From: an uncultured bacterium
Lineage (GTDB): Bacteria > Verrucomicrobiota > Verrucomicrobiia > Verrucomicrobiales > DEV007
DNA: 64,000 bases
Reading direction: 5' to 3'
NCBI GenBank assembly: GCA_963977015.1
Contig: CAXBMO010000009.1
Location: forward strand, 160,001 to 224,000
The notes below the pieces were generated by a model, which saw only the letters and a program-made list of their open reading frames with translations, was not told where the DNA came from and searched no databases. The translations under genes and the position numbers were made by a program. This document shows positions 22,771-58,705 of this stretch, piece after piece (the stretch's first letter is position 1; every line of letters begins with the position of its first letter).

Positions 22771-23442
22771 TCAACGGGTGATGACCGTCGCCCGAATCGG
22801 GGTTTTTGAGCGAGCTTTGCCATAGAGCCTTTCCATCGGAATATCCAACACCGGATACTGCTCCCACCCCACCGCATCAAAGTGCCACCATTCCGTCTTC
22901 ATGATTTTGAACCCATGGCGAACCATGACGGATTGAAGCGTCTTTCGATTCTCGAGAACGCGGCCTTTGAGTTTGAGATACTGGGCGTGGGCTTGCGGCG
23001 TAAAGACGTCGTAGCCAGTCGGCATTTCGAGCTCCCTGCCCATGGCATCGACGAGTGTCAGATCAACCGCCGCGCCTCGATTGTGTCGTGAGCCTCTGGC
23101 CGGGTTCGCCACGAATTTGGGGTTCGGCATGACCTTCCACAACTCCCGCTGGACGGCGAGAGGCCGATATCCGTCCCAGAGTTTCAACCCAAGTCCCTGG
23201 TCTTCCAGTTCAGCCTGAACATTGGCCAACCGTTCCGCGACCGGGCGAAGCAGGTAGGCCCGATGCTCCGGGTAAAATTGTCTGCCACAAAAGTTGTTGG
23301 CCGTCGCATACGGCAGTTCCACAATGATTCCGGGGATGAAGTCATTGATGCAAACCAAGTCTGCGGCCCGAGTTGCCGACGAAGACAGACTTACAATGCC
23401 AACGGTGAGCATCAGAATTCTCATGAGCGGAACCAACATCAT
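22771..23442 (-). CDS. ddpX: D-alanyl-D-alanine dipeptidase (VanX/DdpX, peptidase M15D), exported
   Basis: YATANNF, WDGYRP, SRHNRGAAVDLTL, MPTGYD, EWWHF. Confidence 0.9.
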   Translation of the reverse strand: MMLVPLMRILMLTVGIVSLSSSATRAADLVCINDFIPGIIVELPYATANNFCGRQFYPEHRAYLLRPVAERLANVQAELEDQGLGLKLWDGYRPLAVQRELWKVMPNPKFVANPARGSRHNRGAAVDLTLVDAMGRELEMPTGYDVFTPQAHAQYLKLKGRVLENRKTLQSVMVRHGFKIMKTEWWHFDAVGWEQYPVLDIPMERLYGKARSKTPIRATVITR

Positions 23443-25859
23443 TTGGGACGCATCAAGATTTTACCACTGCTTTGAAGCCGCGTCGCCATCCATCCGACCA
23501 ATTCGGCGTAAACCCAATGCTTCCCATCGACATACCGTTCACTCAGTTGCTTGACGTAGACGTAGTTGTTCACCTCAGCAATTTTGTCACTTCCCGTGTC
23601 CGTGCCTGCGCGCATGGAAAGCACCCCATCGCTTGACTGGACACTCCAGGTTCCGTTGCCGGTCGACTTCATGTAGGTGGTTTGGGTCCCCTCGGCCACC
23701 ATCCACCCTCTCACTCGAACTTCGACCCACCGATTGTTTGCGGTTCGCCCGGTTGCGACCAGAGGAACCGAAAACTGTCGAAACGCGGCGCCCAGACTGG
23801 CCGCATCGCTGTCAGCGGCCGCCCTGACCGTGACACCTTCTTTTCCCGCATAGACCACCTCATAATTGGACACGGCTGGACTTTGCTGAACCGGCGTTGG
23901 ATTCTCCGGGAAGGAAATTTCCGCGTCTTCAATGCGGGCGGAAAGGATAAACCCGGCATCATCAGTTCGGCTCGACTTGATCTCAAAGTAATTGGTTCCG
24001 GTAATGATTTTGCGAGTTGCCCCATCAGAAACGTAGTAGCGGGCCTTCAAGGAAACGGAATATCGCTCGCTCCGAATCTCGCTCACATGGGGCTCACTCA
24101 GAATTTCATGCGTCCTTTGAGTCCACCTCGAATTGTACGCGTTCAGCTTCTCGGCAATTTCATCTCGACCGAGATAACCGTAGTCAAAATAGCGCGCCCG
24201 GTTCGCAAAAAAGCGAAGCTGGTCCTGACCCGAATCACTGTCGCCGGCGCTCAAATAGGCGAGCGCATAGTTTTTGACCGCTTCGCTGTGATCTTCTTTG
24301 ACGGGTTCGGTTTTCGGCTCATCCGGAGGCGGAGTTACGGGTTTGGCGACCGACGCCAATTCGTTGGCTACGTCCATTCGAATTTTTCGAACCCGGTCGC
24401 TCAGTTTGGTCACGGACTTGGAGTGCTTCCTCATTTCGTCCGCCAATTGATTTGCTTCGGCATGAACTTCAGCCGAGGCGCCCTGGCGTTTGGAGATCGA
24501 CAACAATTCGTCCATTCGGTCCATGTTGGCTGACGCTTGATTCGTCATTCTTTCCACTTCATCAACATTGCTTCTGGCCTGGCTACGAAGTGCCGTCAGC
24601 CTGCCCCCCGAAGCGGTGCTGGTTTCCTTGTTAATGGCAATCCAATAGCCGTCTGCCCGATCCCTTTCGCTGCGAATCGTGGCAAAGGTGGTCGAAACCG
24701 ATTGTCGTAGATCCCTCATCGCCGTTGGCGAAGTGCTTCCCGGAACGAAGCCGGCGACGGGATCAACCTTTGGCGGGGGATCGGCAGCATAGGTGATGCG
24801 AGCGGTTGTGCTCTGCACGTCTCCGGGAGGATGGAAACGTTCCCAGGCCAACCATCCTCCTACTCCCAGAATGGCAATGGAGGCAAAAACGACCGCAAAC
24901 AGAAGACCACTTCTCCGATTCGGTTGACGTCCGGTGGCCAATCGTTCTGTTCGCTTTTTGAGTGCGGTTCGTCGTTTCCGGGCATTCTCGAAACATTCCC
25001 GCCATTCCCCCACAGTTTGAGGGCGATGGGTTTCTTCGAAAGATAGGGCGACATCGACGCCGTCAACGAAACCGCTCGAAAAATCCCCCAGGTCCAAGTT
25101 CTGAAAGTTCAACGGATCGACCGCTTTTGTCCGGCCGGCAGCTTCCGGAGGAGCCTTGCCAACCATCGCCCGATACATGACCGCACCCAGCGAATAAATG
25201 TCCGTCCAGGGTCCCTGATTCCCGCTCTCATGATACTGCTCGAACGGGGCATAAGCAGGTGTCAGGACAGCGGTCATCGCCCGGGTCTTTCCGCCCACCG
25301 CCAGTCTCGCACTCCCAAAATCGATCAACACCGGACTGCCATCGCGCGTGATGATGATGTTCTCCGGCTTGATGTCGCGATGCAGATAGCCATTCTCATG
25401 CACAACTTCCAATCCTTCCATGAGCTTGCTGAGAATGGTCCAGAGTTCATCCTCCGAAGGAGTCCGGTCCAATTTTTCCAACCAGTCTCCCAAACTCTCA
25501 CCGTCGAGGAAGTCCGTTACCATGTAGCCGGTGCCATTCGCCTGGAAAATTTCATGAACGCAGACAATGGACTCGTGGTCGCAGGCGGCAAGGATGCGCC
25601 CCTCCTCCATAAATCGCTGTAGCGCCCATTGAAAGGTATCAACATCAGCCTGGGTTTTCGGCGCCACCCTCACTCCATCGCGGGTGGCAAAATCAGACGG
25701 GAGCAACTCTTTGATTGCCACCTTTCTTTTGAGCTCCAGATCCTTAGCCTCGTAGGTGATGCCAAACCCTCCAAAGCCCAGAATTCGGCCCAACTTGTAA
25801 TGACTCAATTGCGTTCCCTCAGCGAGGGCCAACCGATGCGATCTAGCGGTTTGACTCAT
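23439..25859 (-). CDS. Ser/Thr kinase K1: kinase, TM, coiled coil, NTF2-like domain and two SH3b-like repeats
   Basis: GFGGFGITY, VAIKE, HRDIKPEN, DFG, YAPFEQ. TM GLLFAVVFASIAILGVGGWLAW. C-terminal repeats VTVRAAADSDA..WVEVRVRGWM and LSMRAGTDTGS..WVYAELVGWM. Confidence 0.9.
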   Translation of the reverse strand: MSQTARSHRLALAEGTQLSHYKLGRILGFGGFGITYEAKDLELKRKVAIKELLPSDFATRDGVRVAPKTQADVDTFQWALQRFMEEGRILAACDHESIVCVHEIFQANGTGYMVTDFLDGESLGDWLEKLDRTPSEDELWTILSKLMEGLEVVHENGYLHRDIKPENIIITRDGSPVLIDFGSARLAVGGKTRAMTAVLTPAYAPFEQYHESGNQGPWTDIYSLGAVMYRAMVGKAPPEAAGRTKAVDPLNFQNLDLGDFSSGFVDGVDVALSFEETHRPQTVGEWRECFENARKRRTALKKRTERLATGRQPNRRSGLLFAVVFASIAILGVGGWLAWERFHPPGDVQSTTARITYAADPPPKVDPVAGFVPGSTSPTAMRDLRQSVSTTFATIRSERDRADGYWIAINKETSTASGGRLTALRSQARSNVDEVERMTNQASANMDRMDELLSISKRQGASAEVHAEANQLADEMRKHSKSVTKLSDRVRKIRMDVANELASVAKPVTPPPDEPKTEPVKEDHSEAVKNYALAYLSAGDSDSGQDQLRFFANRARYFDYGYLGRDEIAEKLNAYNSRWTQRTHEILSEPHVSEIRSERYSVSLKARYYVSDGATRKIITGTNYFEIKSSRTDDAGFILSARIEDAEISFPENPTPVQQSPAVSNYEVVYAGKEGVTVRAAADSDAASLGAAFRQFSVPLVATGRTANNRWVEVRVRGWMVAEGTQTTYMKSTGNGTWSVQSSDGVLSMRAGTDTGSDKIAEVNNYVYVKQLSERYVDGKHWVYAELVGWMATRLQSSGKILMRPK

Positions 25860-26038: not shown

Positions 26039-27499
26039 TTGGTTAATTCACCGCTAGCGACCAGACGCACGAACGTTGCGTTCAGAAGGTTGGGATTTCT
26101 TCTGCTTTTTATCGGGATGGTTGCTCTGGGGTGGGCACGGTTCGATTTCCGACAAATAAAGGATGGAGTGGTCCGAATTGTCGTGTTGAGTGAGGAAGCG
26201 GAAACGACGGGCAAGGGAATGATTTCGCTAGGTTCCGGATTCGTCATTTCCTCCCAAGGTCATATCGTTACAAATCAGCATATGATCGATAAACCGGGTA
26301 GGATTCTTGCGGTTCAACTTCGGGACAACAAAGTCAAAGTCTGGAGAGTCGGCGCCGTGGTGTATGAAAGCCGGGAAAAGGACTTGGCAGTCCTGCTGGT
26401 CCCCGAGCTCGGGGGCCTTCCAATCCGCCTTGCCAAGAACGATCCTTACCCTGGCGACGAAGTGATTACGATCGGATTCCCTGGCATGGCCGATGCCCAA
26501 CAGGAAAAGGATTTTTTCGTCAATGCGTTGCTGGAATCCGGGTTCCGCGACTTGCCACTGAAAGACGGTTACGTGAATTTCGTCCGGCCCTCCGTGATCC
26601 GCGGAAATGTGGAGGATGTCAGGATTCAATCAAATTGGGGACGCGACAACAATGCCCGGTGCACGATCATTCGGCATAACGCACCCACAGCCAGTGGAAA
26701 TAGCGGAGGCGCTCTGGTCAACGATTCCAACGAAATTGTCGGAGTGCATACCGCCAGCGATGCCGAGGCACGTGATGACAAAACCAAGGCCTCACAGGGC
26801 AAAAAAGTCGGCCTGGGCCTCGCCGTCAGCGAACTGATCGAAGTCCTGGAATCCGTAGGCATTCCCTACAACGAAATTCCTGCCAAGACGACCGGTGAAG
26901 TCGAACCAGGAAATTCCCGCTCGGAAACCTCCACAGCTGAAGAGGCGGCTCCCACTTGGGCCAAAGCATTGCCCTTTGTAATGATCGGTTTGGCCGTGGT
27001 ATTGGTTATTCCCGCGCTCAAGTTGCTGTTGGGAGATCGGACCTCAACAAAGACCGCACGCAGAAAGCCTCATCAACGAATCGCGGGCGAGTTCCCTTCT
27101 GCCCCGGCTTCAGAGAAGGGAGCCACGGTCGGAAACCAGAGGTCCAACCACCAATCCAACGGAAGATTACTCGGCTCGTTATCGGGCACGGACGAGCAAG
27201 GAAAACGCTACTTTTTTCAACTTTCTGCTTCCGATTTTCAGGGAAGGGGCGATAGCTTGAAAGTCGGCAGGACAGGCAATCACGTCGAGATAGCTATCCC
27301 ACATCCCAGCATTTCTCGAGTGCATGCATCCCTCCGTTATTCCCCTGACAATAATGAAATTGCACTACGTGATGAAAACTCTGCAAATGGTTGCAGAATC
27401 AACGGCAAAAAGTTGACGGCTAAGGACGGTTTTCAGCCAATCGGAGGCGGTGATTGTCTCCAGTTGGGAACTGTGAAACTGGTTTACCAGCCCGAATAA
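26039..27499 (+). CDS. Trypsin-like serine protease-TM-FHA protein T1
   Basis: Signal/anchor. Triad in GSGFVI..TNQH, KDLAVL and GNSGG. TM LPFVMIGLAVVLVIPALKLLL. FHA motifs VGR..ISRVH..SANG. Confidence 0.88.
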   Translation: MVNSPLATRRTNVAFRRLGFLLLFIGMVALGWARFDFRQIKDGVVRIVVLSEEAETTGKGMISLGSGFVISSQGHIVTNQHMIDKPGRILAVQLRDNKVKVWRVGAVVYESREKDLAVLLVPELGGLPIRLAKNDPYPGDEVITIGFPGMADAQQEKDFFVNALLESGFRDLPLKDGYVNFVRPSVIRGNVEDVRIQSNWGRDNNARCTIIRHNAPTASGNSGGALVNDSNEIVGVHTASDAEARDDKTKASQGKKVGLGLAVSELIEVLESVGIPYNEIPAKTTGEVEPGNSRSETSTAEEAAPTWAKALPFVMIGLAVVLVIPALKLLLGDRTSTKTARRKPHQRIAGEFPSAPASEKGATVGNQRSNHQSNGRLLGSLSGTDEQGKRYFFQLSASDFQGRGDSLKVGRTGNHVEIAIPHPSISRVHASLRYSPDNNEIALRDENSANGCRINGKKLTAKDGFQPIGGGDCLQLGTVKLVYQPE

Positions 27500-27518
27500 C
27501 GACTCAAGTTTTCAATAA

Positions 27519-29315
27519 ATGGCATTAGAAAACCGACAGGCACTTATTCCAGGCACCATCTTGGGCGAAAAATACGAAATTCTTTCGTTACTCGGAAGCG
27601 GGGGATTCGGAATCACCTATCTCGCCATCGACAATACGCTCAATCGCAAAGTCGCGATCAAGGAGTTGATGCCAGGCGAGTTTGCGATGCGGGATTGGGA
27701 CTCCGAGGAGATCGTCGCAAAAACGCTGTCAGAGGAAACCTCACTCCAGTGGGCCAAGGATCGCTTCATTGAGGAAGCACGGGTACTCGCCCAATTTGAT
27801 CATCCTAACATCATTCATATCCACGACTATTTCATCTCGAGAAACACCGCCTACATGGTGACTTCTTATGAAGAGGGAGCTGATCTCAATACGTTTTTAA
27901 AGGAGAAAGGGCTCTTTCATCAGGAAGACATCAACACTTACATTCTCCCGATCCTCAATGGACTGCAGCTGGTCCACGAAAGCGGATTTCTGCACCGCGA
28001 CATCAAGCCCGACAATATCTACATCAATCACAAGGGCATCCCCATTCTTCTCGACTTTGGAGCGGCCCGCCAAGCCATTGGCAACAAAACCCGGGACATG
28101 ACGGCGATCGTCACGCCCCGATTCGCGCCGTTGGAGCAATACTCCAGCGATGGGAATATGGGGCCGTGGTCAGATATCTATTCCCTCGCCGCCGTCATCC
28201 ACAAAGTCATCACTGGCGATGCCCCACCTGACGCGACGACCCGGATTCGGTCCGATACCTACGAACCGTTGGCGGAAAAGCGCATCAAGGGCTTTGATCA
28301 CGCGTTCTTGACCTGTGTTGACTGGGCCTTGGAACAGTCCGAGGAACGGCGACCGCAAACCATTGCTCAATGGGTCGACCACTTCACGGTTTCGGGAGGC
28401 GCTCCACCAATCCCCACCGATCACTTTTCAGAAACCGTGGTGGCCGGAGGCAGTCGCGCCCCGTCGAGGCCTGTGAGAAGATCCACAGAAGAAACGGTCT
28501 TGACTCAACCTCGCCCCTCTTCAGCGGTTTCCGAACCCAGGAAATCACGCACAGGTCTCATCGCCGCCTTGTTTCTGGGATCAGCACTGTTTCTCGGCTT
28601 GGGAGGATTTGTGGCGCTGCGCCAATATTCCCCCGATCTCATCGCGTTCTTCGATAGCAGCGAATCCGACAATGATTCATCCGGTCCCATTGACGACGGT
28701 ACAGGCGGAAATGACACTGGGGCTCCACCACCCAACCCAATTCCCGAGGACGACAGCAAGCCCGACGTTTCCGAGGAAGAACCGGACAAGCAAACCGAAT
28801 CCCCGATCATCCTCCCACCGACTCCTCCAAAACCGCCGGACGAGACCAAGCCTCCGGTAGAATCAGTTTCACTCGATGAGTTGGTCGACTACGTGACCGC
28901 TGTGGACCGCCGACTGTGGGATGCCTGGTATGCGGACCGAATCATTCGAGCGTCGATCCAACCGCAGATGAACCTTCGTGATCCGGATATGAGCGAAGCG
29001 GAATTTCGGGCCAACCAGACCAAACTCCAGGAAGCCTTCACCGCCCGAAACAATCAGGTCATCCAGTACTGCGAGGACGTTCGCCTCGACGTCGCGAAGC
29101 TGATGAAATACGAAGAGTCGCAAGTGGATCAGGCCTTTGCCGCCAGACTCAGCCAAATCCAGCAAACCGGAGTTGAGCGCAAGGTTAATACGGAAGTTCA
29201 ACAGAAACTTCTTGGAATCGCAAAGTCCATTTATAAGGATGAAAAGGCGGGTTTGATCGTGAACGCAAACGCCATCAGGGAACGAATCAAAGGCCTTTCT
29301 GCATTGCAGAAATAA
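27519..29315 (+). CDS. Ser/Thr kinase K2: kinase, TM, Pro/acidic linker and helical extracytoplasmic domain
   Basis: GSGGFGITY, VAIKE, HRDIKPDN, DFG, FAPLEQ. TM LIAALFLGSALFLGLGGFVAL. Confidence 0.92.
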   Translation: MALENRQALIPGTILGEKYEILSLLGSGGFGITYLAIDNTLNRKVAIKELMPGEFAMRDWDSEEIVAKTLSEETSLQWAKDRFIEEARVLAQFDHPNIIHIHDYFISRNTAYMVTSYEEGADLNTFLKEKGLFHQEDINTYILPILNGLQLVHESGFLHRDIKPDNIYINHKGIPILLDFGAARQAIGNKTRDMTAIVTPRFAPLEQYSSDGNMGPWSDIYSLAAVIHKVITGDAPPDATTRIRSDTYEPLAEKRIKGFDHAFLTCVDWALEQSEERRPQTIAQWVDHFTVSGGAPPIPTDHFSETVVAGGSRAPSRPVRRSTEETVLTQPRPSSAVSEPRKSRTGLIAALFLGSALFLGLGGFVALRQYSPDLIAFFDSSESDNDSSGPIDDGTGGNDTGAPPPNPIPEDDSKPDVSEEEPDKQTESPIILPPTPPKPPDETKPPVESVSLDELVDYVTAVDRRLWDAWYADRIIRASIQPQMNLRDPDMSEAEFRANQTKLQEAFTARNNQVIQYCEDVRLDVAKLMKYEESQVDQAFAARLSQIQQTGVERKVNTEVQQKLLGIAKSIYKDEKAGLIVNANAIRERIKGLSALQK

Positions 29316-29370
29316 TGGACGACTTTTCTCAACAACTCTCCAACCAACAAAACACACACACAAAAACACA

Positions 29371-30006: not shown

Positions 30007-30039
30007 CCTTCGAGGAGTAGGACGACAACGAACCACCCT

Positions 30040-30426
30040 ATGAATTGGATTTATCATACTCTAAGAGTTACAGGCATCGCTGGTGTGTTGATCTTCGGCA
30101 CCGCATGTGAGACAACCGGCGATCCAAGAGCAGGCGGCTACTGGAACTGGAGCGAGACCAAGGCAATTCAACGCCAGGACGATCTCCGCGGCACCCTTGG
30201 TTCGCTCAACAGGGAGAACAGCCGTTTGCAAAGTGAACAGGCCAGCCTCAAAGCCCAATTGCGGAGCAAACAGTCGCAATTGAGTTCCTTGCAGCAGCAG
30301 AAAAAACGCGCTCAGCAGGAGTCAAAACCGGATCTCGTGGCCGCAACCACCAAAGAAATCAACCAACTCCAAGGTGATATCTCCTCGTTGGAAGCGGATC
30401 TTCGCCGGATTGAAAGCCGCATGTAG
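30040..30426 (+). CDS. Small coiled-coil lipoprotein
   Basis: Lipobox FGTAC, TTGDPRAGGYWNWSE, then a Q/L-rich coiled coil. Confidence 0.8.
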   Translation: MNWIYHTLRVTGIAGVLIFGTACETTGDPRAGGYWNWSETKAIQRQDDLRGTLGSLNRENSRLQSEQASLKAQLRSKQSQLSSLQQQKKRAQQESKPDLVAATTKEINQLQGDISSLEADLRRIESRM

Positions 30427-33271: not shown

Positions 33272-33279
33272 TTTGTCTG

Positions 33280-34542: not shown

Positions 34543-34563
34543 TAAACCTCTCAATACCGTAGA

Positions 34564-44561: not shown

Positions 44562-44591
44562 CCCTGCTCTCAACCCCTCATCCATGCTTCG

Positions 44592-49928: not shown

Positions 49929-52900
49929 AGAAGATACTCCTGACCTGGTTCACATTGCTCTGGTTGGTTGCCCTGCCAACTGCGTTGGGGAAACCCAACG
50001 TCCTCGTCGATTTTCCATCCTACGAAGAACCGGTTTCTCGCCCGGAAATCCTCCTTGGCCATCAAATCCGTGAAGCGCTCGTTCTCGCCTTGAAACAAAG
50101 CGGTCATCCCGTTGCCGTTGATGCACTGCTGGCGCCACCAACCACTGATTTCGACTTCCGACTTCCCAACGCGCTTCCTTTTGAACTTCCGGCCGAGTTG
50201 CATCCCGAGGTTCGCTTTCGCATCGAGCATCTCAGTTCCAGCAACATCCGCATTGCGATCCGGTCCAAGGACTCGGAGCAATTCACTTCTTTTCTTGAAT
50301 TCGCCGCTGGGGAAAAAGCTGTCTGGCCCAAAATCCAGAAGCAGGTCTACACATGGGCAGGAACCGATCCCCCCGATCAATCACCCGCCCTGCCGCCCGA
50401 ACCCAACGCAGAAGCCCCTCGCTCTCCGTATCCCAATGATTCCGCCTGGCTCGATTCCGGGTTCACCGACAGGCTCGCGACCTACAATGCCCTGGCTTCT
50501 CAACTCCACAGCCCCACATCGAATGCCAGGGAATATCCGCTCGCAGGTCTGGCCCGTCTGTCAGCCCTGCATGCGGCTTACTATAGCAGGATTGACGAGG
50601 TATCTGCATTTCGTTACGCAGCCCGGTCGCTGGTCTTTCTCGAAATGCTTGAGCAACAGGCATCGGCCCCTCCGGAAGTTCGCCATTTGATAGAGAACAT
50701 CCGCTTTCTTGCCGAGCGCTTCACTCTGAGATCCTGGTTGCCGACACCAAAGACCGTCGTTCTGCCGGAATTACAGCTCCTGATCAATCACGAGCGCAAT
50801 CAAAATCTCACGATCCATCCCGGAGCAGAATCTCTCTTTGCATTGTTGGTTTCTTGCGAAGCTTATTCACCGATCCGTGGCTATGATTCGGCCATCAGCA
50901 AAGCCCTCGATTTTGAAGGCTTTTTCGCCGCGCTTGATCAACGCGTGGAATCGGAAAAAACCCCAGCCTATTCGGGGTTGATCGAAAACGGAGAACGATA
51001 CTTGGAGCACGCCCTCGTCTTGGCCCGGCACACCGACTACACCTTCGATTCGGTCATGATGGTGGATCGCTATGTTTACGCTCTCTTTCAATTGAACCAG
51101 GAAGCCACTCCCACCGGTCAAGAGTTGGGAGTGCTGGCAAAACTTGATGGTTTCGAAGCGGTTGAAGGCCTCACAACAGAAGTCATCTCGTGGATCAATA
51201 CGGCGGAGCAGCACTTTGACTGGCTTGATACGGAGGGCGCAGCCATTCCCAAAGACGACCTCACCGCCCACACTCTCCCATACCTCAAAATCCTGGGGAT
51301 ATTGTACTGGCTGGACAACGAGATCCCCGACAAACCAGAGTTGTGTTATTCAAGCTCATGGAAACTCAACTGGTATGACATCCGCCAAGAGTTCGTGAAC
51401 CGTCACGCTTCTCTTGCCGTGTCCGCCTACGAGCGTTTCCAAGACCTTGGCGTCTCCCAAGCGAGTGCCATGAAGCGGCAACTGAACCGCTTTGGAAACG
51501 AAAAGTTGAATCGCCCGAGCCGATTTCTCGCGCCGATTCAGATTACCCCGACCACGGTCGTATCCTGGCAATGGCTGTGCGAAGACTTGCAGACGCTTTG
51601 CGCTCAAGTGCGGTGTACTCCAGCGACCGGGATCCTGACAAAGTGTCCCACAATTCGCGACAGCATCGCCTCCGGCTCCCTATCAGAAGACCAACGTGTC
51701 ATGTTCATCGACGCATTGCAGGAGTCGATTCAAGACCCTGAATTGGTTCAGCAAAGCAACTTTCTCGGCTGGATTGATGAATCTCTGATTCGAGAGATCC
51801 GCGAATTGATTCGCGAAGGGGATCCCGAAGCCGTGCCTCACATCAACGCATTCGTGCTCGGCATCATTTTTGACGGAGTCTTCGCGTTTCCTGATTCGTA
51901 CGACAATTCTCCACTTCTATCCATCGCCGGTCGTCAAGCGAGTCGATGGGTCCGGCAGGCCAAGTACCTGGACAATCGCGGTCAGACCGACAAAGCGGCG
52001 ACGATGGCGGAGAAAGCCTTCACATTGACTGACCAAAACAGCCTTTTCGGGAGCGACTATGTCATGATTCTTGGCAGAACCGGCCGACTTCACGAAGCCC
52101 TGGCCCAAATGGCAATCCTGGCGGCAGACGACTTCGCCCACGATTATCACCGACGCCGAGTTCTCAAATGGCTCCCCCATTGCGGCGCCCTCAATTGCCC
52201 ACAAGGTCTGGAAGTCAACCTGGCGGAGTATCTCGGAGAAAACACCACCGCGTCTTCCATGGATTATCTTGCTCGCGCAGAATATGCGTTTCGACTGGGC
52301 GAATGGGAAGTGATGAAACAAGTGGTCGACGACTTTCACTACGCAGGCTCTGCGCGCAGGGAGGTTTTGGATGCCATCGCCACAACGATGTTGAGCCGCC
52401 GGGACAACCCGGATTGGTCCCACATCGAATCCGCTCTTCGATCGGAGCTGGCAGCTTACGGCGGCAGCATCCTGGAGTCCTATGATTTCTGGTTGGCCAT
52501 CCTCGACCGCGAATTCGGCGACGCACCTGAGTGGGACGGCATCAAGCAACGAACCCGGTTTGAGGACATTGCTCAACTGCATCACCACTCGAAACAGCTC
52601 TGGCTTCCGCTCAAAGAGGACGAAGCTGCCAAGATTCTGAACTGGTATCAGAAGACGACCGAAGCCTTTCTTGAGGAAGACGGCCCCTGGCAAACCGGTG
52701 TCGATGACTGGAAACTCAAAGCGGTGCTCGACGAACATCGTGCCCTTGGAAAATGGATCGCCCTGCAAACGGACCGATTTCGGACTTCGCCCGCCCCGTC
52801 AGTCATCGAAACGGCAGCCACCGTTGTCCGGAAAACCAATGAAACCCGGGAGTTGCGGGCAAAACTCCAACCTCGCGAACCGGTCGCCATGAATTTCATG

Positions 52901-53401
52901 GTGTGGTTGCTTCGCGAAGGTTGCCCACCGGAAAAGGTGGCGGAGTTTGCTGAGAACCTTGTCTCCAGTGGCGCGAATCCCTGTCACGGCGAGTCCATTC
53001 TTTGTGAGGCGGTTCGAGATTCCGAAGCGTTGTCCCTCATTTTGTCCTGGCCCAAGGAAGCCCTGCCGCGGAGGGCTGACGATCCCCAGAAATTCGCGAT
53101 CGACCTCGAAGGGCTCTTTCAATGGGCTTTCGTCAACGGACGCGACACGATCGCCGAAGACGCAGCTCGGAAGTTGGCCGTGGAATCGTCCGATTTCAGG
53201 GCCCTCCAGCTCTTCTTTTCAGATCAGGACCAGGCGGCAGTCTGGATTCACAGCAACGCTCCGAGCCGCAAGTTGCTTGCCGTCTGGAAGCAGCAATTGA
53301 ATTCCGAAAACCCGCACGAACGCCTCCGCAAGGAGCGAACGGCAGCCAGTCATCCAGCGCCCAAAATTCCGCGACCGCTCTGCGCTACCACGGTTGAATA
53401 G
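49925..53401 (+). CDS. Large secreted alpha-helical (partly TPR-like) hypothetical protein
   Basis: Signal peptide MKKILLTWFTLLWLVALPTALG at ATG 49925, overlapping the STAND stop (ATGA). TPR-like segments such as GQTDKAATMAEKAF. Confidence 0.75.
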   Translation: MKKILLTWFTLLWLVALPTALGKPNVLVDFPSYEEPVSRPEILLGHQIREALVLALKQSGHPVAVDALLAPPTTDFDFRLPNALPFELPAELHPEVRFRIEHLSSSNIRIAIRSKDSEQFTSFLEFAAGEKAVWPKIQKQVYTWAGTDPPDQSPALPPEPNAEAPRSPYPNDSAWLDSGFTDRLATYNALASQLHSPTSNAREYPLAGLARLSALHAAYYSRIDEVSAFRYAARSLVFLEMLEQQASAPPEVRHLIENIRFLAERFTLRSWLPTPKTVVLPELQLLINHERNQNLTIHPGAESLFALLVSCEAYSPIRGYDSAISKALDFEGFFAALDQRVESEKTPAYSGLIENGERYLEHALVLARHTDYTFDSVMMVDRYVYALFQLNQEATPTGQELGVLAKLDGFEAVEGLTTEVISWINTAEQHFDWLDTEGAAIPKDDLTAHTLPYLKILGILYWLDNEIPDKPELCYSSSWKLNWYDIRQEFVNRHASLAVSAYERFQDLGVSQASAMKRQLNRFGNEKLNRPSRFLAPIQITPTTVVSWQWLCEDLQTLCAQVRCTPATGILTKCPTIRDSIASGSLSEDQRVMFIDALQESIQDPELVQQSNFLGWIDESLIREIRELIREGDPEAVPHINAFVLGIIFDGVFAFPDSYDNSPLLSIAGRQASRWVRQAKYLDNRGQTDKAATMAEKAFTLTDQNSLFGSDYVMILGRTGRLHEALAQMAILAADDFAHDYHRRRVLKWLPHCGALNCPQGLEVNLAEYLGENTTASSMDYLARAEYAFRLGEWEVMKQVVDDFHYAGSARREVLDAIATTMLSRRDNPDWSHIESALRSELAAYGGSILESYDFWLAILDREFGDAPEWDGIKQRTRFEDIAQLHHHSKQLWLPLKEDEAAKILNWYQKTTEAFLEEDGPWQTGVDDWKLKAVLDEHRALGKWIALQTDRFRTSPAPSVIETAATVVRKTNETRELRAKLQPREPVAMNFMVWLLREGCPPEKVAEFAENLVSSGANPCHGESILCEAVRDSEALSLILSWPKEALPRRADDPQKFAIDLEGLFQWAFVNGRDTIAEDAARKLAVESSDFRALQLFFSDQDQAAVWIHSNAPSRKLLAVWKQQLNSENPHERLRKERTAASHPAPKIPRPLCATTVE

Positions 53402-53414: not shown

Positions 53415-56102
53415 CTATCCCAACCAACCTGAGCGAAATGCCAGGACCGCAAGAGTGGCGAGGAGGGTAATCACCAGGAGGGTGATGAGGATGGAGACGA
53501 TCTTGAGTCCCGAACGCGGTGGCGTTGCTTGCGGCGGGAGGCTGCAGGCCGCTGGAGGAAGCCTGAATTCCTGCGTCTGGTCCAGATCGGCGGAGGGACG
53601 CGAAGTGGCAGCCGGCGCGGGCATGGGAGGGGCAGGTGGTGGGGAAACACTCCGGCGAACTGGGGGCTCCTCTTCCATCGAATTATCGCCCGGTTCAAAT
53701 TGTAGGTTTCCGCCAAGGTCATGAATATCAAAGTCCTTTCCGGAAATGATCTCCTTTACCGTTCCATCCTCGGCCTCGGTAGTTTCCGAAGGTTCGAAGC
53801 TCGGTTCCGGCCCTTCTAACTTCTCCTCATTGGTCGATGCTTTGGGTTCCGGACGCCCAATGAGCCGCGTCGCCTCCTCTTCATCGCCTCCCCCACCGTA
53901 GACGGGAGCCGGTTCATCGTCTTCCTCGCTGCGCTCAATGATTCGCGTCTGCGATGGGATCTCACGGTTGACGGACGCGGAGTAGTCGGCCAGCGGATTG
54001 CTTGCGAGCTTGAGCGCTTGAAAGTGAATTGAAGACAACTCTCGCGGGGCCACCGGCATCGGCATTTCCCAGTAGGTTGGCCGGATGAAATTCTGCCGCC
54101 GTAGCGAAAGTGCGTGCCGATATTCCTGCATCACCACGTCTGATTGGCGGGAATTCGATGACCAAAAGAGCTGAAACACGTCTGCTTCCTCAATCAGGTT
54201 CATCAATTGCGGGTGCCAGGCCTCGCCCGCGCGCAGTTCCAGCAAATCCCGGAGGTAGCGATCGCCCAACGTTTTGCCGTAGTTCTCGATCTGCTCGACA
54301 ATGGCCAAATCCTGCCGGGAATAGGATGGAAAAATCCGCCGATAGAGCGCCGCCGAATCGGAAACCTGCTCGACTTCCGAAGGCAGGGAAACTCCGGCCG
54401 GGGTAATCTGAAAACGGAGGGGAACTTCCGCGACCATCAGACTGCCCAAATAAATGGAGAGACTGCCCGCCGCTTCCGTTGCGCCGCTGCCGATGGGGCG
54501 AAGCTGAAACTCTTCTTTGTGGACGTTGACGCCCCGGACCCAGAAAAAGGAGCGCGAGGGCGGATTGAAACGGACTCCCGGCACGTGGGGCACCAGCCGA
54601 ATCTCCGCTTCACGCGGAATCGCCAGGCTACTGTCCTTGGTGGTGTCGAGGTATTGGCTGATCTTTTCTCCCAAAACATCCCCCGCCTGCGCCCTCACCT
54701 CCTCAACCGGGTGCGCGGCGTTGGCCGGAGCGTCGATCGGCTTATCATCCAGGTGCGTGAACACCAGCATCTGGCTCCACACATCCGCCGGGAGACTCTT
54801 GGGCCGATAGGTGGTGAACTGCACGTTCTCCGGCGGATATAACCCTTCCTCGCCGGCCACCTCCTCCAGAATTTCGCCGTCTTCACCGTCGTCAAACAGG
54901 CCGTCCGTCACTTCAATAGCCGGCTTGGCTGCGACCGGCTCCTTCGCCCACTCCTCAGGTTCGACGGGTTGCGCAACCGGAGGCACCACGGCCTCCTTTT
55001 TCTTCTCCAACTCCGGTTCAGGCTCCGGGACAGGTGCAGGCACGGGAAACGATGGCAATGGCGCCGGGGGTGCGACCGGCATCGGCACTGGCGCACCAGC
55101 GTCCTGCGAAGCCACCTCATGTGGAGGCTGGGAAGTCCCATCAAGCTCGTCTGTATCCTCCGTTTCTACCGCCGGAGCCTCGACCACCGGTGGTGCGGGA
55201 CGCTTTCCCAACAGTTTCCTCAACTCGTCAACGGACGCGGGCCGATCTTCCGCATCGACGGCAAAAGCCCGATCGATGGCCCCGAGCATCTCCGCCCCAA
55301 AGCGATCCACCAGCTCCTCATTCCCGGCCAACGCGGGCGATTTCTCCGGACTGGTCAACCGGGTTGGCGCGGGAGTTGGACGCTGCCGCGACACGACGTG
55401 ATAAAACAACGCCCCCAGGGAATAAAGGTCGCTGGAAGGCCCCTCCACCACATCGGTCATGAACCGATCGATCGGCAAGTAAGGCGAAATGAGCCGTTCG
55501 CCATCATCATTCTTTTCGTAAGCGGCCTTGGCGGCGCCAAACTCAATGATCTTGGGCTCCTTCTTGGGTCCAGAAAGAACGACGTTATCCGGGGCAAGGT
55601 TCAGATGCAGCGCGCCTTTCTCGTGCAGGTATTCCACCCCATTCAGGACGCCGCTGATCAGGTCATACAACTCCGCCGCACTCAACCAGTCCTCCTCACT
55701 CTCGCGCCTGCGGATCTCTTCACTCAGGGACCGGCCCACCACATACTGCAACACACAATACGCCGTCCCATTCGCCTCAAAAACATCGAAGACTCGCACC
55801 AGTCGCGGATGGTCAAACTCCAGCCACTGCTTTGCCTCGCCCACAAAATCCTTCAACGTCGTTGCAAAAAGGTCGGCATACAGCGGGTTGCCCTCAAACG
55901 TCAGCACCTGCTGACTGGATGCCTCGCGATACGCCAAATCTTCAGGAAGCAGCTCCTTCACCACCACCTCACGCATCCGCACCGTATCCCAGGCCAGGTA
56001 GGTGTAGCCAAGGATTCCCGTCCCGAGGCGTTCACGAATCTTGTATTGTCCCAGACTCGTTGCCGGTGCCAACGGAGTCGCTTTTTGAGGCGGTGCTTCC
56101 AT
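53415..56102 (-). CDS. Pseudokinase K5, Pro-rich linker, unknown beta domain, TIR-like domain, disordered linker and C-terminal TM
   Basis: GTGILGYTY, VVVKE, HLNLAPDN, EFG. TIR-like RIFPSYSRQD..ADVFQLFWSSNS..SDVVMQEYRHAL. C-terminal hydrophobic helix. Confidence 0.85.
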   Translation of the reverse strand: MEAPPQKATPLAPATSLGQYKIRERLGTGILGYTYLAWDTVRMREVVVKELLPEDLAYREASSQQVLTFEGNPLYADLFATTLKDFVGEAKQWLEFDHPRLVRVFDVFEANGTAYCVLQYVVGRSLSEEIRRRESEEDWLSAAELYDLISGVLNGVEYLHEKGALHLNLAPDNVVLSGPKKEPKIIEFGAAKAAYEKNDDGERLISPYLPIDRFMTDVVEGPSSDLYSLGALFYHVVSRQRPTPAPTRLTSPEKSPALAGNEELVDRFGAEMLGAIDRAFAVDAEDRPASVDELRKLLGKRPAPPVVEAPAVETEDTDELDGTSQPPHEVASQDAGAPVPMPVAPPAPLPSFPVPAPVPEPEPELEKKKEAVVPPVAQPVEPEEWAKEPVAAKPAIEVTDGLFDDGEDGEILEEVAGEEGLYPPENVQFTTYRPKSLPADVWSQMLVFTHLDDKPIDAPANAAHPVEEVRAQAGDVLGEKISQYLDTTKDSSLAIPREAEIRLVPHVPGVRFNPPSRSFFWVRGVNVHKEEFQLRPIGSGATEAAGSLSIYLGSLMVAEVPLRFQITPAGVSLPSEVEQVSDSAALYRRIFPSYSRQDLAIVEQIENYGKTLGDRYLRDLLELRAGEAWHPQLMNLIEEADVFQLFWSSNSRQSDVVMQEYRHALSLRRQNFIRPTYWEMPMPVAPRELSSIHFQALKLASNPLADYSASVNREIPSQTRIIERSEEDDEPAPVYGGGGDEEEATRLIGRPEPKASTNEEKLEGPEPSFEPSETTEAEDGTVKEIISGKDFDIHDLGGNLQFEPGDNSMEEEPPVRRSVSPPPAPPMPAPAATSRPSADLDQTQEFRLPPAACSLPPQATPPRSGLKIVSILITLLVITLLATLAVLAFRSGWLG

Positions 56103-56308
56103 ATCTCTTGGGGAACAAATAAGGATTCAGGAAAACCCCGTCAAAATAATTGTCTAACATTTGCTCCACTCAACTTCCTGCGTTGGCCTGGATCACCCGG
56201 GAGACGCAGCGATGTTGGGATGATTGAACGTTGCCAGTGCCCGTCGAGCTAACAATGTCGCAAAAATGCAGCGATCAATTTCGCCTCATTGACGAGCGGA
56301 CCATCAGC

Positions 56309-56725
56309 TTAAAAGGCAAAGGTCAGCGCAATAGCTACGCCGGCGGAGAGGAACAGGAGGAGATTGAGGGACAGGTTGTAGATCCAGAACCGGCGCTGGT
56401 TGCGTTGCCCGGCCTCCAGATCCGGAAAGTGTCCGGTTTGGCTGAAGCGGGAGACCCACACGGCAAAGCGATGAAGGCTGATGGCGGGGTAGACGCCGAG
56501 CAGGGCCACGACGATGAGGACGATGCCGGTAGTCGTGGCGGCCGACGCCGGCACCAGATTGAGTTCCATAACAAAGGGAACCCCTGCGATAAGGGCGCCC
56601 CCGAGGATGGCGCCAAAAAAGGCGTAAACCCCAATGATGGTGGAGGTCAGGCGAACCCAATCGCGTGTTTGATGAGCGGTATTTTGAATCCGCTCCATTT
56701 GATCGACCTTTTTGCGACGTCTCAT
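56309..56725 (-). CDS. Small 3-TM membrane protein (DUF5362-like)
   Basis: TRDWVRL..YPAISLHRFA..QRRFW pattern with three hydrophobic segments. Confidence 0.65.
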   Translation of the reverse strand: MRRRKKVDQMERIQNTAHQTRDWVRLTSTIIGVYAFFGAILGGALIAGVPFVMELNLVPASAATTTGIVLIVVALLGVYPAISLHRFAVWVSRFSQTGHFPDLEAGQRNQRRFWIYNLSLNLLLFLSAGVAIALTFAF

Positions 56726-56737
56726 TCGGGTTGCGCG

Positions 56738-58705
56738 TTAATTCAGGGATTGAAAGACGATGACGATGACCCCGATGGTGAGGGAGATGGCGGTGAGAAG
56801 GGAAAGGGTGCCAATGCCGGCCCAAACGAGACGCTGCTTCTTGAGGACCTTGTTGAGGGAAGAGACTTTGGGCGCTTGTTTGGCGCGACCGATGGAGATG
56901 GCCATCTGAAACTGGGAGAGCACAATGGAGAAGAGGATGATGGCGAGGACGCCAAGAAAGCTGCCGAAGCCAATAATGGGGGCTTCTTCTTCCTGAACTC
57001 CGCCCAAAATCATCACGGTAGCCCCCAAGGCAAAGAAGCCCGAAACGAGGAGGCCGACGATACCGAGGATGACGACAAAGGGCTGAAATTTGCTAAACTC
57101 GCGAACGAGGCCCATGAACTCGGGTTCTTGCTCGAGCCGTAGCTCTTCTTCGCGAAGAATGGCGGCTTCTTCTTCCTGCTGTTTGGCGAGGGCCCCCTCC
57201 TCTGCTTTCTTTTTCGCAAGGCGAGCTTCCTCCTCTGCCTTCTTCTTGGCGAGTTTTTCTTCCTCGGCGGCTTTTTTCCGGGCCTGACGCTCTTCTTCTT
57301 CGGCTTTCTTTTTGGCGAGACGCTCTTCTTCCCTGGCTTTTCGCTCCTCTTCTTCCGCTTTTTTCCTGGCGAGGCGTTCTTCCTCCTCTTGTTGCTTCTT
57401 CGCTAAAGCTTCGGCCGCTGTTTCATCGTCGTCATCATCATCGGGCAGCGGTTGGCGGACGGGTTCACGCTCCTCGGGCAGGGACGGCGGCGTAATGGCT
57501 TTGGCCCCGCTTTGACGCTTGGGATCGATGAGGATGGTGCCGCCGGGTTCGGCATCCTGGGCAATCTTGGCAGACTCGCTTCCTTCCTTGCGGAGGATGA
57601 CACCGTCTTCATCCATTTCCGTGGCGACTTTGTCAGCTTTGGCCTCGGCTATTTTGGCGGAGGCGGCTTCCAGTTGGCGGGCGACGTTCTGTTTGGTGGC
57701 AGTCCAGGCGGAGGCGCCAAATTTGAGTCCCTTGCCAATGGCTTCACCAATTCCGGCGCCAACCGCCGCAGGGTCTTTGGACTCCGGGGAGTCAGCCACG
57801 ACGTGCTCAAAAAGTCCCCGCCACTCGGCAACGGTCCGCGGGCGTTTGTCTTCGTCGACTTCAAGCGCGCGGTCGATCGCACGAAGGAAGGCCAGCTCGG
57901 CGCGATCCGGGTTCTTGATGATTTTGGCGAGTTTCTCGACCGGGTCGGGTTTCTTCTTCAACCGCGCGTTGGCGCGTTGGCTGGAATCGGTTGGTTTTTC
58001 GCCGAGTAGGCAGCGATAGCAAACCGCGCCGAGGGCATAGAGGTCCGTCCAGGGCCCCTGAAGCTGAGGATCACCCGAGTATTGCTCAAACGGAGCGTAT
58101 CCAGGGGTGACGATGCTGGTCACGGAGCGGCTTTTTTCGGCAATGCCCTGCCGGGCAGCGCCAAAGTCGAGCAAAATGGGCACGCCCTTCTCCGTAATGA
58201 TGATGTTGTCGGGCTTGATGTCGCGGTGCAGGACGTCATTGCGATGCACTTCCTCAAGACCATTGGCCAACTGGAGGATGATCTCGCGCACGTCCTCCAA
58301 CGGAAGGCGATCTCGCTCAGACTTGCTGAGACGCTTGCCCAAATCGTCGCCTTCCACGTATTCCATGACGCAGTAGACGGTCTCATTGGCCTGAATGACG
58401 CGATGAACGCCGACAATGTTGGGGTGTTTGAACTTGGCCAAGGTCCGCGCCTCTTCGATAAAGGCGTCTCGCGCCCACTCGAACTCGTCTTTGTGACCGA
58501 TGGTGATGGGAATGACGGTGCAACCGGTCCCCCGCATCGCGATCCCGTCAGGCAGCAACTCCTTGATGGCAACCTTCAGCCCAAGGTCGATATCCTGAGC
58601 GAGATAGGTGATGCCAAAGCCGCCTTTGCCCAGAACTTTGAGAATTTGATACCCCTCAATCCGAAATTCGGCGGGCAAGGAGATCTGGTCCTGAGGGTTA
58701 TCCAT
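56738..58705 (-). CDS. Ser/Thr kinase K6: kinase, charged helical repeat and 3-TM DUF5362-like C-terminus
   Basis: GKGGFGITY, VAIKE, HRDIKPDN, DFG, YAPFEQ. EEERLAKKKAE repeats and three C-terminal TMs. Confidence 0.92.
   Translation of the reverse strand: MDNPQDQISLPAEFRIEGYQILKVLGKGGFGITYLAQDIDLGLKVAIKELLPDGIAMRGTGCTVIPITIGHKDEFEWARDAFIEEARTLAKFKHPNIVGVHRVIQANETVYCVMEYVEGDDLGKRLSKSERDRLPLEDVREIILQLANGLEEVHRNDVLHRDIKPDNIIITEKGVPILLDFGAARQGIAEKSRSVTSIVTPGYAPFEQYSGDPQLQGPWTDLYALGAVCYRCLLGEKPTDSSQRANARLKKKPDPVEKLAKIIKNPDRAELAFLRAIDRALEVDEDKRPRTVAEWRGLFEHVVADSPESKDPAAVGAGIGEAIGKGLKFGASAWTATKQNVARQLEAASAKIAEAKADKVATEMDEDGVILRKEGSESAKIAQDAEPGGTILIDPKRQSGAKAITPPSLPEEREPVRQPLPDDDDDDETAAEALAKKQQEEEERLARKKAEEEERKAREEERLAKKKAEEEERQARKKAAEEEKLAKKKAEEEARLAKKKAEEGALAKQQEEEAAILREEELRLEQEPEFMGLVREFSKFQPFVVILGIVGLLVSGFFALGATVMILGGVQEEEAPIIGFGSFLGVLAIILFSIVLSQFQMAISIGRAKQAPKVSSLNKVLKKQRLVWAGIGTLSLLTAISLTIGVIVIVFQSLN

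Follow-up and report, generated by a model that had tools for sequence, protein, structure and literature searches.

A run of 21 genes at 23439–58705 of the window, by which we mean the whole 64,000-nt stretch of contig CAXBMO010000009.1 from an uncultured member of the Verrucomicrobiales that was analysed here, is a composite island and not one unit. We favor the explanation, with a probability of about 0.6, that it combines a widespread gene cluster for a predicted, kinase-wired 5:2 motor (26039–44561; genes g2–g8 and g10–g16) with lineage-specific modules. The genes are labeled g1 to g21 in their order along 23439–58705, and the open reading frame (ORF) listing and Pfam place them between argH/ddpX (21319–23442) and a ThuA gene (58934–59938). 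The initial annotation, which was made from the letters of the DNA, had reported 21 consecutive genes for kinases, phosphatases, FHA proteins, proteases, vWA proteins, a channel, a transporter, lipoproteins and STAND and TIR-like domains, and this inventory was borne out by the ORF listing and by a Pfam search of all 21 proteins.

The genome is 6.89 Mb in 51 contigs and 95% complete, and named relatives of its genes are found in Akkermansiaceae, Roseibacillus and other Verrucomicrobiota. It holds 28 Pkinase matches, six of which lie inside the 35-kb island (an even spread would place about 0.14 there), and six of the 15 FHA matches listed for the genome fall inside the island as well. As the island makes up 0.5% of the genome, this clustering of kinase and FHA genes is far beyond chance.

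Few kinds of ion-driven 5:2 motor are known (flagellar stators, Ton, Tol, gliding and Zorya), and each has given rise to a field of research. The branch to which we assign the island cluster, in which a trans-pore helix (TPH) is joined to a vWA domain, is so far known by computer prediction only. In the window and in 80 related loci we find a Hanks kinase and FHA readers beside the TPH-vWA motor in nearly all cases, and PP2C phosphatases and membrane-tethered proteases in many, which suggests that assembly or activity of the motor may be switched by threonine phosphorylation.

The predicted motor genes and their conservation

The channel gene g12 (38545–39375, minus strand) encodes a TolQ/ExbB/MotA-like subunit (MotA_ExbB, PF01618, E 1.5e-9, 38.2 bits against a cut-off of 22.9). 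A hydrophobicity scan gives it the ExbB/TolQ layout with three transmembrane (TM) segments, of which TM2 and TM3 keep GTVxGI-like and TT motifs that are invariant. The same genome has 18 MotA_ExbB matches and g12 ranks 15th among them by score, and it is therefore a divergent paralogue. As a separate observation, 18 matches to this family in one 6.9-Mb genome represent an unusually large set of TolQ/ExbB/MotA paralogues.

The proton motor proposed in the initial annotation has gained a plausible partner that had gone unseen there, namely g15 (41477–42463, minus strand), which has a helix of the TolR/ExbD type. Its N-terminus, TFSLSMVDLFACAMGAFMLL, forms one TM helix that contains an Asp residue (Asp17), and it is followed by a coiled coil and a vWA domain with an intact DxSxS motif (VWA_3, E 8.5e-13). 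All 21 aligned homologues keep the helix motif S-x-x-D-L-F-A-x-A-x-G-x-F, with Ser14, Asp17, Phe19, Ala20, Ala22, Gly24 and Phe26 unchanged, and this type of helix recurs beside g12-like genes across phyla. The heads of the homologues diverge; they are mostly vWA domains, and another domain is present in four of the 21. Four proteins from related loci (L025:5250–5966, L031:12333–13082, L033:8828–9565 and L076:8618–9418) have the invariant trans-pore helix together with a shorter non-vWA periplasmic head that carries a conserved VDPxGxE[YF] motif. The trans-pore helix is thus constant and the head exchangeable, since these proteins keep the former without a vWA domain.

Proteins of this kind have been described in a computational study (Origin and Evolution of Bacterial Periplasmic Force Transducers, Mol Biol Evol 2025; PMC12204202). 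According to its main text, vWA proteins that are tethered by a TM helix and have a TolR/ExbD-like trans-pore helix with a conserved Asp co-occur tightly with tolQ homologues in the absence of tolR/exbD, mainly in Proteobacteria and Verrucomicrobia and "predominantly in heterologous pairs"; AlphaFold 3 models put the TPH-vWA inside the pentamer, and force transduction, perhaps gliding, is suggested for the vWA transducers. The pair g12/g15 fits this description, as a TolQ/ExbB-family gene lies near a TPH-vWA gene without tolR or exbD. The motor core is thus a known computational prediction, because the main text of PMC12204202 already describes such TPH-vWA/tolQ pairs.

On the basis of that description and of the known features of these families, it is plausible that the g15 helix is a TolR/ExbD/MotB-type trans-pore helix, and we predict from the sequences that g12 would form the pentameric outer stator and g15 the inner (B) subunit of a 5:2 motor. 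A separate tolR, exbD or motB gene is not present in the island. The Pfam models for ExbD, MotB_plug, OmpA and TonB_C gave no match at E ≤ 0.01 in the 21 island proteins, and even with the limit set to E ≤ 10 the MotB_plug and ExbD profiles missed the g15 helix. A complex prediction with residues 57–276 of g12 in four copies and residues 1–55 of g15 in two copies gave a score of 0.09 (mark 0.32), a result for a 4:2 and not a 5:2 assembly that, with no control run beside it, speaks neither for nor against the complex. The second vWA protein, g14, has a TM segment without Asp and a topology opposite to that of g15, and g15 is the only TPH protein of the island.

The channel has many relatives. 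We found 1483 homologues of g12 at E ≤ 1e-5, and at least 566 relatives were confirmed in species-representative genomes of GTDB. Judged by record titles, the family occurs in Verrucomicrobiota, Alpha- and Gammaproteobacteria, Latescibacterota, Bryobacterales, Rhodothermales and Binatia. From the at least 566 g12-like loci 80 were fetched, 51 of which have at least 5 kb on both sides of the motor gene; counts for these 51 loci are probe-based lower bounds for the 10 kb around the motor gene. A kinase was found within this distance in 43 of the 51 loci, a strict-motif TPH ORF in 38, an FHA domain in 35, a PP2C in 25, a trypsin in 10 and a g14-type vWA in seven, and 16 of the 51 loci have two TPH ORFs. 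Clustering of the ORFs of all 80 loci gave small g13-like FHA proteins in 72 of them, g15-like proteins in 60, kinases in 58 and g14-like proteins in 13, and no other large conserved family emerged from it. The co-occurrence elsewhere of kinase, PP2C, FHA, vWA, trypsin and MotA/ExbB genes, which the initial annotation had envisaged, is therefore real in the sets of 51 and 80 loci.

Gene order is conserved as well. The order vWA-FHA, FHA, MotA-like, FHA, PP2C, followed in some cases by a PP2C with TM and a trypsin, recurs in seven loci (L010, L015, L026, L052, L070, L078 and L083) that span verrucomicrobial, alphaproteobacterial and gammaproteobacterial genomes. A g6-like PP2C gene adjoins the motor in several phyla, and a g10-like PP2C gene follows a g11-like gene in many. 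There is also a second variant, which consists of twin TPH-vWA genes, a channel and a kinase. In this variant, found in Lysobacterales and other Gammaproteobacteria (e.g., L034:14617–15708 and L050:16299–18287), we noted near the motor a family of 363-aa ORFs in 21 loci and one of 662-aa ORFs in 10 loci, neither of which has a Pfam match. According to record titles, the core is present in two isolate strains, Microbulbifer epialgicus DSM 18651 (L077) and Halioxenophilus sp. WMMB6 (L064), which would make tests practical if the strains can be grown and manipulated.

Candidate phosphothreonine parts and the TR[IL][IV] motif

Six island proteins have a Pkinase fold (g1, g3, g8, g16, g19 and g21), which agrees with the number of kinases given in the initial annotation except that two of the six, g16 and g19, are without catalytic residues. 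The kinases g1, g3 and g21 are canonical, with VAIK, HRD and DFG motifs. In g1 (23439–25859, minus strand; Pkinase E 1.8e-36) the kinase domain is followed by a TM segment and a 466-aa ectodomain, g3 (27519–29315, plus strand; E 1e-39) has a TM segment at residues 344–368 and a periplasmic domain of about 230 aa, and in g21 (56738–58705, minus strand; E 4.9e-39) a K/E-rich coiled region precedes three TM segments at the C-terminus. The membrane Hanks kinase g8 (33280–34542, plus strand; E 4e-25) has HCD and DFG motifs and is thus of the non-RD type; it has a TM segment at 372–405 and almost no ectodomain. Both g16 (42729–44561, plus strand; E 2.3e-17) and g19 (53415–56102, minus strand; E 1.3e-23) look like pseudokinases from their motifs, which read VVVEEL, HLG and EFG in g16 (K to E, HRD to HLG and DFG to EFG) and HLN and EFG in g19.

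Two PP2C phosphatases are encoded. One of them, g6 (30567–31850, plus strand; PP2C_2 E 2.4e-11), has DGAGGH, SDG and DNTS motifs, a TM segment at 250–282 and a Pro-rich periplasmic tail, and the other, g10 (37054–37833, minus strand; PP2C_2 E 1.9e-14, SpoIIE E 8e-9), is soluble.

FHA domains are found in seven proteins, namely g2, g7, g9 (with two), g11, g13, g14 and g16. The count of seven in the initial annotation therefore stands, but as readers of phosphothreonine (pThr) two of the eight domains drop out: six keep the Arg, Ser and Asn residues for pThr binding, whereas the second FHA domain of g9 and the FHA domain of g16 are without them. In three of the seven proteins the FHA domain is joined to a further domain across a TM segment. 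These are g2 (26039–27499, plus strand; Trypsin_2 E 7e-20, FHA E 4e-11), which begins with a signal or anchor sequence and has hydrophobic segments at 12–37 and 304–334, g7 (31847–33271, plus strand; Trypsin_2 E 3e-24, FHA E 4e-18), which begins with a signal peptide, and g14 (39809–41269, minus strand; VWA E 3e-6, FHA E 6e-20), which also begins with a signal peptide and has hydrophobic segments at 7–27 and 334–365. From the hydrophobicity scan and the N-termini we predict that the trypsin-like and vWA domains of g2, g7 and g14 are periplasmic and their FHA domains cytoplasmic. The two Trypsin_2 domains, of g2 and g7, have an intact His/Asp/Ser triad (GNSGG), and the vWA domains are likewise two, in g14 and g15. 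The small cytoplasmic FHA protein g13 (39372–39791, minus strand; FHA E 2.6e-8, GR/SRxH/NG) overlaps the downstream g12 by 4 bp. The two lipobox proteins lie between g3 and g6. In g4 (29371–30006, plus strand) the lipobox LSSC is accompanied by a Gly-rich zipper-like stretch and a coiled coil, with no Pfam match above cut-off; g5 (30040–30426, plus strand) is a small coiled-coil lipoprotein with a GTAC lipobox and has weak coiled-coil Pfam matches only.

A hallmark of g11 (37833–38519, minus strand; FHA E 1.2e-6) is a disordered N-terminus that precedes its canonical C-terminal FHA domain and contains three copies of the motif [D/E]-x-x-T-R-[IL]-[IV], at T7, T37 and T73 (DDTTRIIRR, PEATRIVER and SDKTRLVRP). 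Two copies are also found in the tail of g19 between its TIR domain and its TM segment, at T719 and T745 (PSQTRIIER and EEATRLIGR). The background of TR[IL][IV] is 0.14 per 1000 aa, and only nine ORFs genome-wide have two copies within 80 aa; by our own reading of the flanks listed, g11 and g19 are the clearest acidic-flanked cases. Acidic-flanked copies also occur in g11 homologues of other genomes (three in the congener G151, two in G054 and two in L010), and of 40 g11-like ORFs from several phyla 19 have a less strict version, T[RK][ILVM][ILVM], N-terminal to the FHA domain. The sharing of the TR[IL][IV] repeat by g11 and g19 is new here.

Threonines followed by a hydrophobic residue at position +3 are among the classical ligands of FHA domains. 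We infer from the sequence that the motif threonines are phosphorylated, which would make g11 a candidate phospho-hub, and because the tail of g19 carries the TR[IL]I motif of g11, g19 could be recruited by the same FHA readers. The repeat offers a concrete candidate for a phospho-site that can be tested. The fact that a TIR protein carries it in its tail, together with the fusions of kinase and TIR-like/nSTAND1 domains described below, also provides a testable bridge between eukaryote-like kinase signalling and bacterial NLR/TIR immunity.

Composite structure and rival explanations

The composite nature of the island is seen when it is compared with relatives. In a congener, G151, the genes g2–g8, g10–g15 and g16–g18 are kept on contig C21 in the same relative arrangement and at 43–74% identity (g2 54%, g3 52%, g4 60%, g5 53%, g10 74%, g11 72% and g17 57%), and the G151 island is without g1, g9, g19 and g20. 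The start of ddpX is overlapped by g1 by 4 bp in the same orientation. In G151 a ddpX gene (~75% identical) is found on another contig, C27, with a g1 homologue (~60%) at a distance of ~3.6 kb and a second kinase gene between them. Both the overlap and the location of the G151 homologue, near ddpX and on a contig other than that of the island, argue that g1 belongs to the flank.

G151:C21 also has accessory genes that differ from those of the window (L005:13317–19486; L006:8196–10865 and 15804–16490). They encode a 740-aa Hanks kinase, a 553-aa protein without a family, a double Asp_protease_2 (retropepsin-like) protein, a small vWA protein, an extra FHA protein and an 889-aa protein with TPR-S, Trypsin_2 and GDSL-lipase domains; the extra kinase is closest to g21 (49% identity, in the kinase domain only). 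Orthologues of g12 are strong in G151 and in G178, which belongs to another family of the order, and the congener G152 (92% complete) has a generic 91-bit match to the MotA family only. At E ≤ 1e-15, g14 is found in one of three congeners and in none of 21 other genera of the family. From the weak match in G152 and this distribution of g14 we conclude that the core is accessory and patchy. The island behaves like a conflict system in that its accessory genes differ between two congeners and its core is patchy.

The lineage-specific modules would be the unit g16-g17-g18, the exporter g9 and the unit g21-g20-g19. The pair g17-g18 is common to one congener only, G151. In g17 (44592–49928, plus strand) a TIR-like N-domain precedes an nSTAND1 domain (residues 217–677; PF20703, E 4e-87, 293.8 bits against a cut-off of 27.1), a TM segment at 728–749 and an extracytoplasmic part of ~1000 aa for which no Pfam match was found. 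The model of the N-domain has a predicted local distance difference test (pLDDT) score of 76; TIR domains account for its top row in VIA-align (Z 12.3, root-mean-square deviation 3.4, 137 residues) and for 10 of the best 13. Next, no more than 2–3 Z units lower, come DNPH1/deoxyribosyltransferase and receiver folds, Foldseek E-values are marginal and DUF4062 appears at E 0.099, below the cut-off, and we therefore call the domain TIR-like and not a proven TIR.

Residues 1–720 of g17 have 3382 homologues at E ≤ 1e-10. The best 120 of these all share the N-domain and the NTPase, with a TM segment right after the NTPase in 103 of them and a kinase domain fused at the N-terminus in 35, and the neighbouring pair g16-g17 therefore mirrors a common fusion. 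In relatives P0122–P0241 we noted that WD40 repeats mostly follow the TM segment after the NTPase. We would expect STAND proteins of the g17 type to span the membrane and to have their sensor outside the cytoplasm. The nSTAND1 domain was defined in conflict systems, as described in PMC8195603. The pseudokinase g16, encoded upstream of g17 and in divergent orientation to g15, ends after a Pro-rich linker in a degenerate FHA domain; its C-terminal 89 aa are 49% identical to the FHA domain of the G151 homologue of g11, and we take this domain to be a paralogue of the g11 FHA domain.

The gene g18 (49925–53401, plus strand) encodes a secreted protein in which a long TPR-like alpha-solenoid accompanies a small alpha/beta N-domain; it has no Pfam match. 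Its AlphaFold 2 model (pLDDT 82, predicted template modelling score 0.82) has the same two parts. Only one homologue was found by word search and 18 by exhaustive HMMER search of 1.84 billion representatives, and none in 400 other genomes of the phylum. Against the PDB, Foldseek gave no match at E ≤ 0.001, only generic alpha-solenoids with a TM-score of at most 0.2; Atlas features suggest TPR proteins at 0.91, which is a lead only.

In g19 the pseudokinase is followed by a middle domain, a TIR_2 domain (E 1.2e-9, 39.2 bits against a cut-off of 28), the tail with the two motifs and a C-terminal TM segment. The middle and TIR domains are 45% identical to a gene of G160, around which island genes are absent within the 17.7 kb examined. 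The transporter g9 (34564–36978, minus strand; ABC_tran and ABC2_membrane) is an ABCG-like half-transporter with two FHA stretches, a nucleotide-binding domain (NBD) and an ABC2 membrane domain, and its best solved relatives are ABCG/PDR transporters. Neither g9 nor g19 has a close counterpart in 40 relatives, the best match to g9 being at most 39% identical. We conclude that g9 is an accessory gene specific to this genome and that g19 is an accessory gene.

A mechanism can be proposed for the whole. We suggest that g12 and g15 form a motor driven by the proton-motive force (PMF), in which g15 would put the coiled coil and the vWA head, with its metal ion-dependent adhesion site (MIDAS), into the periplasm; the head would take the place of a peptidoglycan-binding or TonB-type domain. 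As writers, the membrane Hanks kinases g3 and g8, and possibly g21, would phosphorylate the motif threonines of g11, and the FHA domains of g2, g7, g14, g13 and g9 would dock on the pThr, by which the motor and the exporter could be assembled or gated, along with the proteases and the second vWA protein. The erasers g6 and g10 would reset the system. The vWA head would hold a ligand in the periplasm or outer membrane, on which rotation of the motor could pull. Genus-specific, immune-type outputs may be added by g16 with the g17 receptor and the g18 solenoid, and by the motif-bearing g19. The whole could thus be a phospho-gated, PMF-powered device for surveillance of and response at the envelope, coupled in this genus to STAND/TIR outputs.

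Individual parts of this arrangement have counterparts in known systems. In the threonine phosphorylation pathway of the Pseudomonas H1 type VI secretion system (T6SS), PpkA, PppA, Fha1 and TagQRST control the assembly of an envelope machine. It shares with the island a membrane Hanks kinase, a PP2C and FHA proteins, and lipoproteins and an ABC-type component take part in its sensing, but no T6SS domain is found in the island, where the controlled machine would be a TolQ-like motor. The absence of a T6SS stated in the initial annotation is upheld, with no TssC (PF05943) match in the 95%-complete genome and a positive E. coli control, TssC being the T6SS family covered by the genome search. Zorya uses a MotA/MotB-type 5:2 motor, ZorAB, away from flagella and together with accessory effectors. 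The likeness lies in the repurposed motor with accessory effector genes, the difference in the vWA head of g15, which stands in place of the peptidoglycan-binding domain of the inner subunit of Zorya. A weak PADLOC match of g12 to ZorA2 (E 5.9e-5) covers residues 172–261, i.e., TM2–TM3, and no match to ZorB, ZorC, ZorD or ZorE was obtained with PADLOC in the 20 island proteins searched (all except g20). In Mycobacterium tuberculosis, Rv1747 is an FHA-regulated ABC transporter. In architecture, which is all that was compared, g9 has the same layout of two N-terminal FHA domains, NBD and ABC-2 membrane domain, and it shares with Rv1747 a kinase gene nearby; g9 is absent from the congener island, and the ABC probe was found in three of the 51 motor loci, each time more than 3 kb from the motor gene.

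Networks of pThr writers and readers with vWA partners have also been reported. In Sulfolobus the FHA protein ArnA binds the phosphorylated flexible tail of its vWA partner ArnB (PMC5007285), and with the kinases ArnC/ArnD and PP2A this archaellum network has the same quartet of FHA, vWA, Hanks kinase and phosphatase. As described there, however, it is archaeal, cytoplasmic and transcriptional, uses another phosphatase family and is without a membrane motor or proteases. The Deinococcus operon DRA0331–0334 likewise brings together vWA, serine/threonine kinase, FHA and PP2C genes (bioRxiv 10.64898/2026.01.23.701218) but is linked to a DNA-damage kinase, and its abstract has neither a MotA/ExbB-like gene nor a TPH, a comparison made by description only. 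The MoxR-vWA ternary systems and Esr threat-sensing systems share vWA, kinase/phosphatase pairs, FHA outputs, STAND and TIR with the island, and in the parts of the reports considered they have beta-propeller sensors and variable effectors and no TolQ-like motor (PMC7159879, PMC13622651); among the island proteins Pfam gave no MoxR AAA+/AAA_3-type or VMAP match. The TPH-vWA motor remains the closest comparison. In the main text of PMC12204202 the word kinase has 0 occurrences and FHA appears only as FhaC, so that kinase, PP2C, FHA, trypsin, STAND and TIR lie outside the published description as given there. By these comparisons the island does not belong with T6SS regulators or with Zorya, MoxR-vWA or Ton/Tol systems; it is a version of the predicted TPH-vWA motor that has been expanded and wired to kinases. 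We found no published description of a kinase-linked TolQ-like motor in the literature covered, which did not extend to subscription journals and supplements, and the statement of the initial annotation that it knew of no characterised system with this composition holds.

Several points weigh against the explanation that we favor. The island has a single TPH-vWA gene and a vWA-TM-FHA gene, whereas PMC12204202 describes mostly heterologous pairs; since its wording is "predominantly" paired, a single TPH-vWA does not exclude membership. Probes for g17, g18, the TIR domain of g19, g4 and g5 each gave 0 of 51 related motor loci, and the motif T[RK][ILVM][ILVM] was not found in 21 of the 40 g11-like ORFs. 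In the same class, G054 (contig C1; L009:1143–6454) has a cluster of vWA-FHA, g11-like FHA, PP2C, PP2C and kinase genes with no g12 match at E ≤ 1e-8 in 40 kb, which indicates that the phospho module can work without the motor; its g11-like protein has two T[RK][IL][IV] motifs. With PADLOC, the same 20 proteins gave generic kinase (PD-T4-6, mad6), ABC, protease and coiled-coil matches, none of them system-specific. From sequence we predict that the motor proteins form a complex, that the motif accepts phosphate and that FHA domains dock on it; the direction of signalling and the biological role are what we infer from these predictions, and an output in defence or cell contact may be suggested on the same grounds. 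As STAND/TIR, g18, the lipoproteins and the ABC transporter do not accompany the motor outside the genus, an immune role would be read from adjacency in two genomes and from the shared motif.

The initial annotation saw in the 21 genes one self-contained machine for sensing and response across the envelope. The genes are indeed contiguous, with short gaps, overlaps and a common pThr theme, the TR[IL][IV] motif ties g11 to g19 and g16 has its paralogue of the g11 FHA domain, but with g1 coupled to ddpX here and near it off the island in G151, with g9, g19 and g20 missing from the G151 island, with STAND, g18, TIR and lipoprotein probes at 0 of 51 and with a g17 family of more than 3000 members that occurs without the motor, we consider a single system very improbable. 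A chance pile-up of signalling genes without functional unity, in a genome that has 28 kinase and 18 MotA_ExbB matches, deserves practically no weight; six of the 28 kinases in 0.5% of the genome, gene order conserved across phyla and translational coupling all speak against it, and for the core the conserved synteny refutes it.

Two other proposals concern the function of the core. It could be a defence system of the Zorya type against phages or competitors, in which the motor would sense perturbation of the envelope and trigger proteases, TIR and STAND proteins. This would suit the patchy occurrence in genus and family, the conflict domains that vary between congeners (TPR-S, trypsin, lipase, TIR and nSTAND1, the last defined in conflict systems according to PMC8195603) and the weak ZorA2 match in the TM region of g12; with no ZorB, ZorC, ZorD or other system-specific PADLOC match, and with STAND/TIR probes at 0 of 51 loci of other taxa, we regard it as a serious contender that is nevertheless unlikely. 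Alternatively, the core could serve accessory envelope mechanics of the Tol-Pal, Ton or Agl-Glt type, i.e., tethering, adhesion, gliding or energised uptake or release, with the STAND/TIR genes as chance neighbours. The TolQ/ExbB-like g12 fits this idea, vWA heads and the coiled-coil lipoproteins g4 and g5 suit adhesion or tethering, vWA force transduction and perhaps gliding are suggested in the main text of PMC12204202, and Myxococcus Agl-Glt is described as pairing a TolQR-like motor with other envelope parts (PMC11761067). We find it doubtful because the core was not found in most relatives, which argues that it is not a core envelope function, because neither Tol nor Ton has anything that matches its protease-FHA and PP2C partners, and because no TonB/TolA-type partner is found among the island proteins; Pfam gave no match in the island to the periplasmic domain of ExbD/TolR or to the TonB/TolA transducer.

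A joint version, which we rate as quite unlikely, would make the core a new class of envelope immune sensor, a mechanosensory pathway that feeds NLR/TIR immunity. The motor would then pull continuously on a ligand of the outer envelope, and a lost or distorted load, caused by a phage, an epibiont or a competitor, would be signalled to the Hanks kinases. Phosphorylation of TR[IL][IV] could lead to clustering of FHA domains and switch on the periplasmic proteases, and in this genus it might in addition recruit the TIR NADase-type protein and the membrane-spanning TIR-like/nSTAND1 receptor.

Gene calls and surroundings

Stop/start overlaps within the operons, as noted in the initial annotation, are seen in the coordinates of g6/g7, g13/g12, g11/g10 and g17/g18, the last with the start of g18 taken as 49925. 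This start is most likely the right one, as it gives an ATGA overlap with the stop of g17 and an N-terminus resembling a signal peptide; a start at 49745 fits less well. Between g21 and g19 we take the 138-aa ORF at 56309–56725 (minus strand) as g20, a multi-TM protein without a Pfam match that is described here by its position and hydrophobic segments only. A 303-aa ORF at 56231–57142 (plus strand) was considered for this place and rejected as probably not a gene, since it overlaps g20 and g21 in antisense, has an acidic low-complexity translation and is without a Pfam match.

No tRNA genes are found in the window, and no integrase or transposase domains among the proteins scanned. Of the read sets listed as containing 37000–44600 none is from RNA, and those from DNA are labelled as marine metagenomes. 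The GC content at 26–42 kb is ~0.50–0.545, compared with 0.55–0.58 over most of the window, which is a weak hint. Upstream of argH, at 20096–21310 (minus strand), the window encodes a 404-aa protein with a Laminin_G_3 (concanavalin-like lectin) domain.

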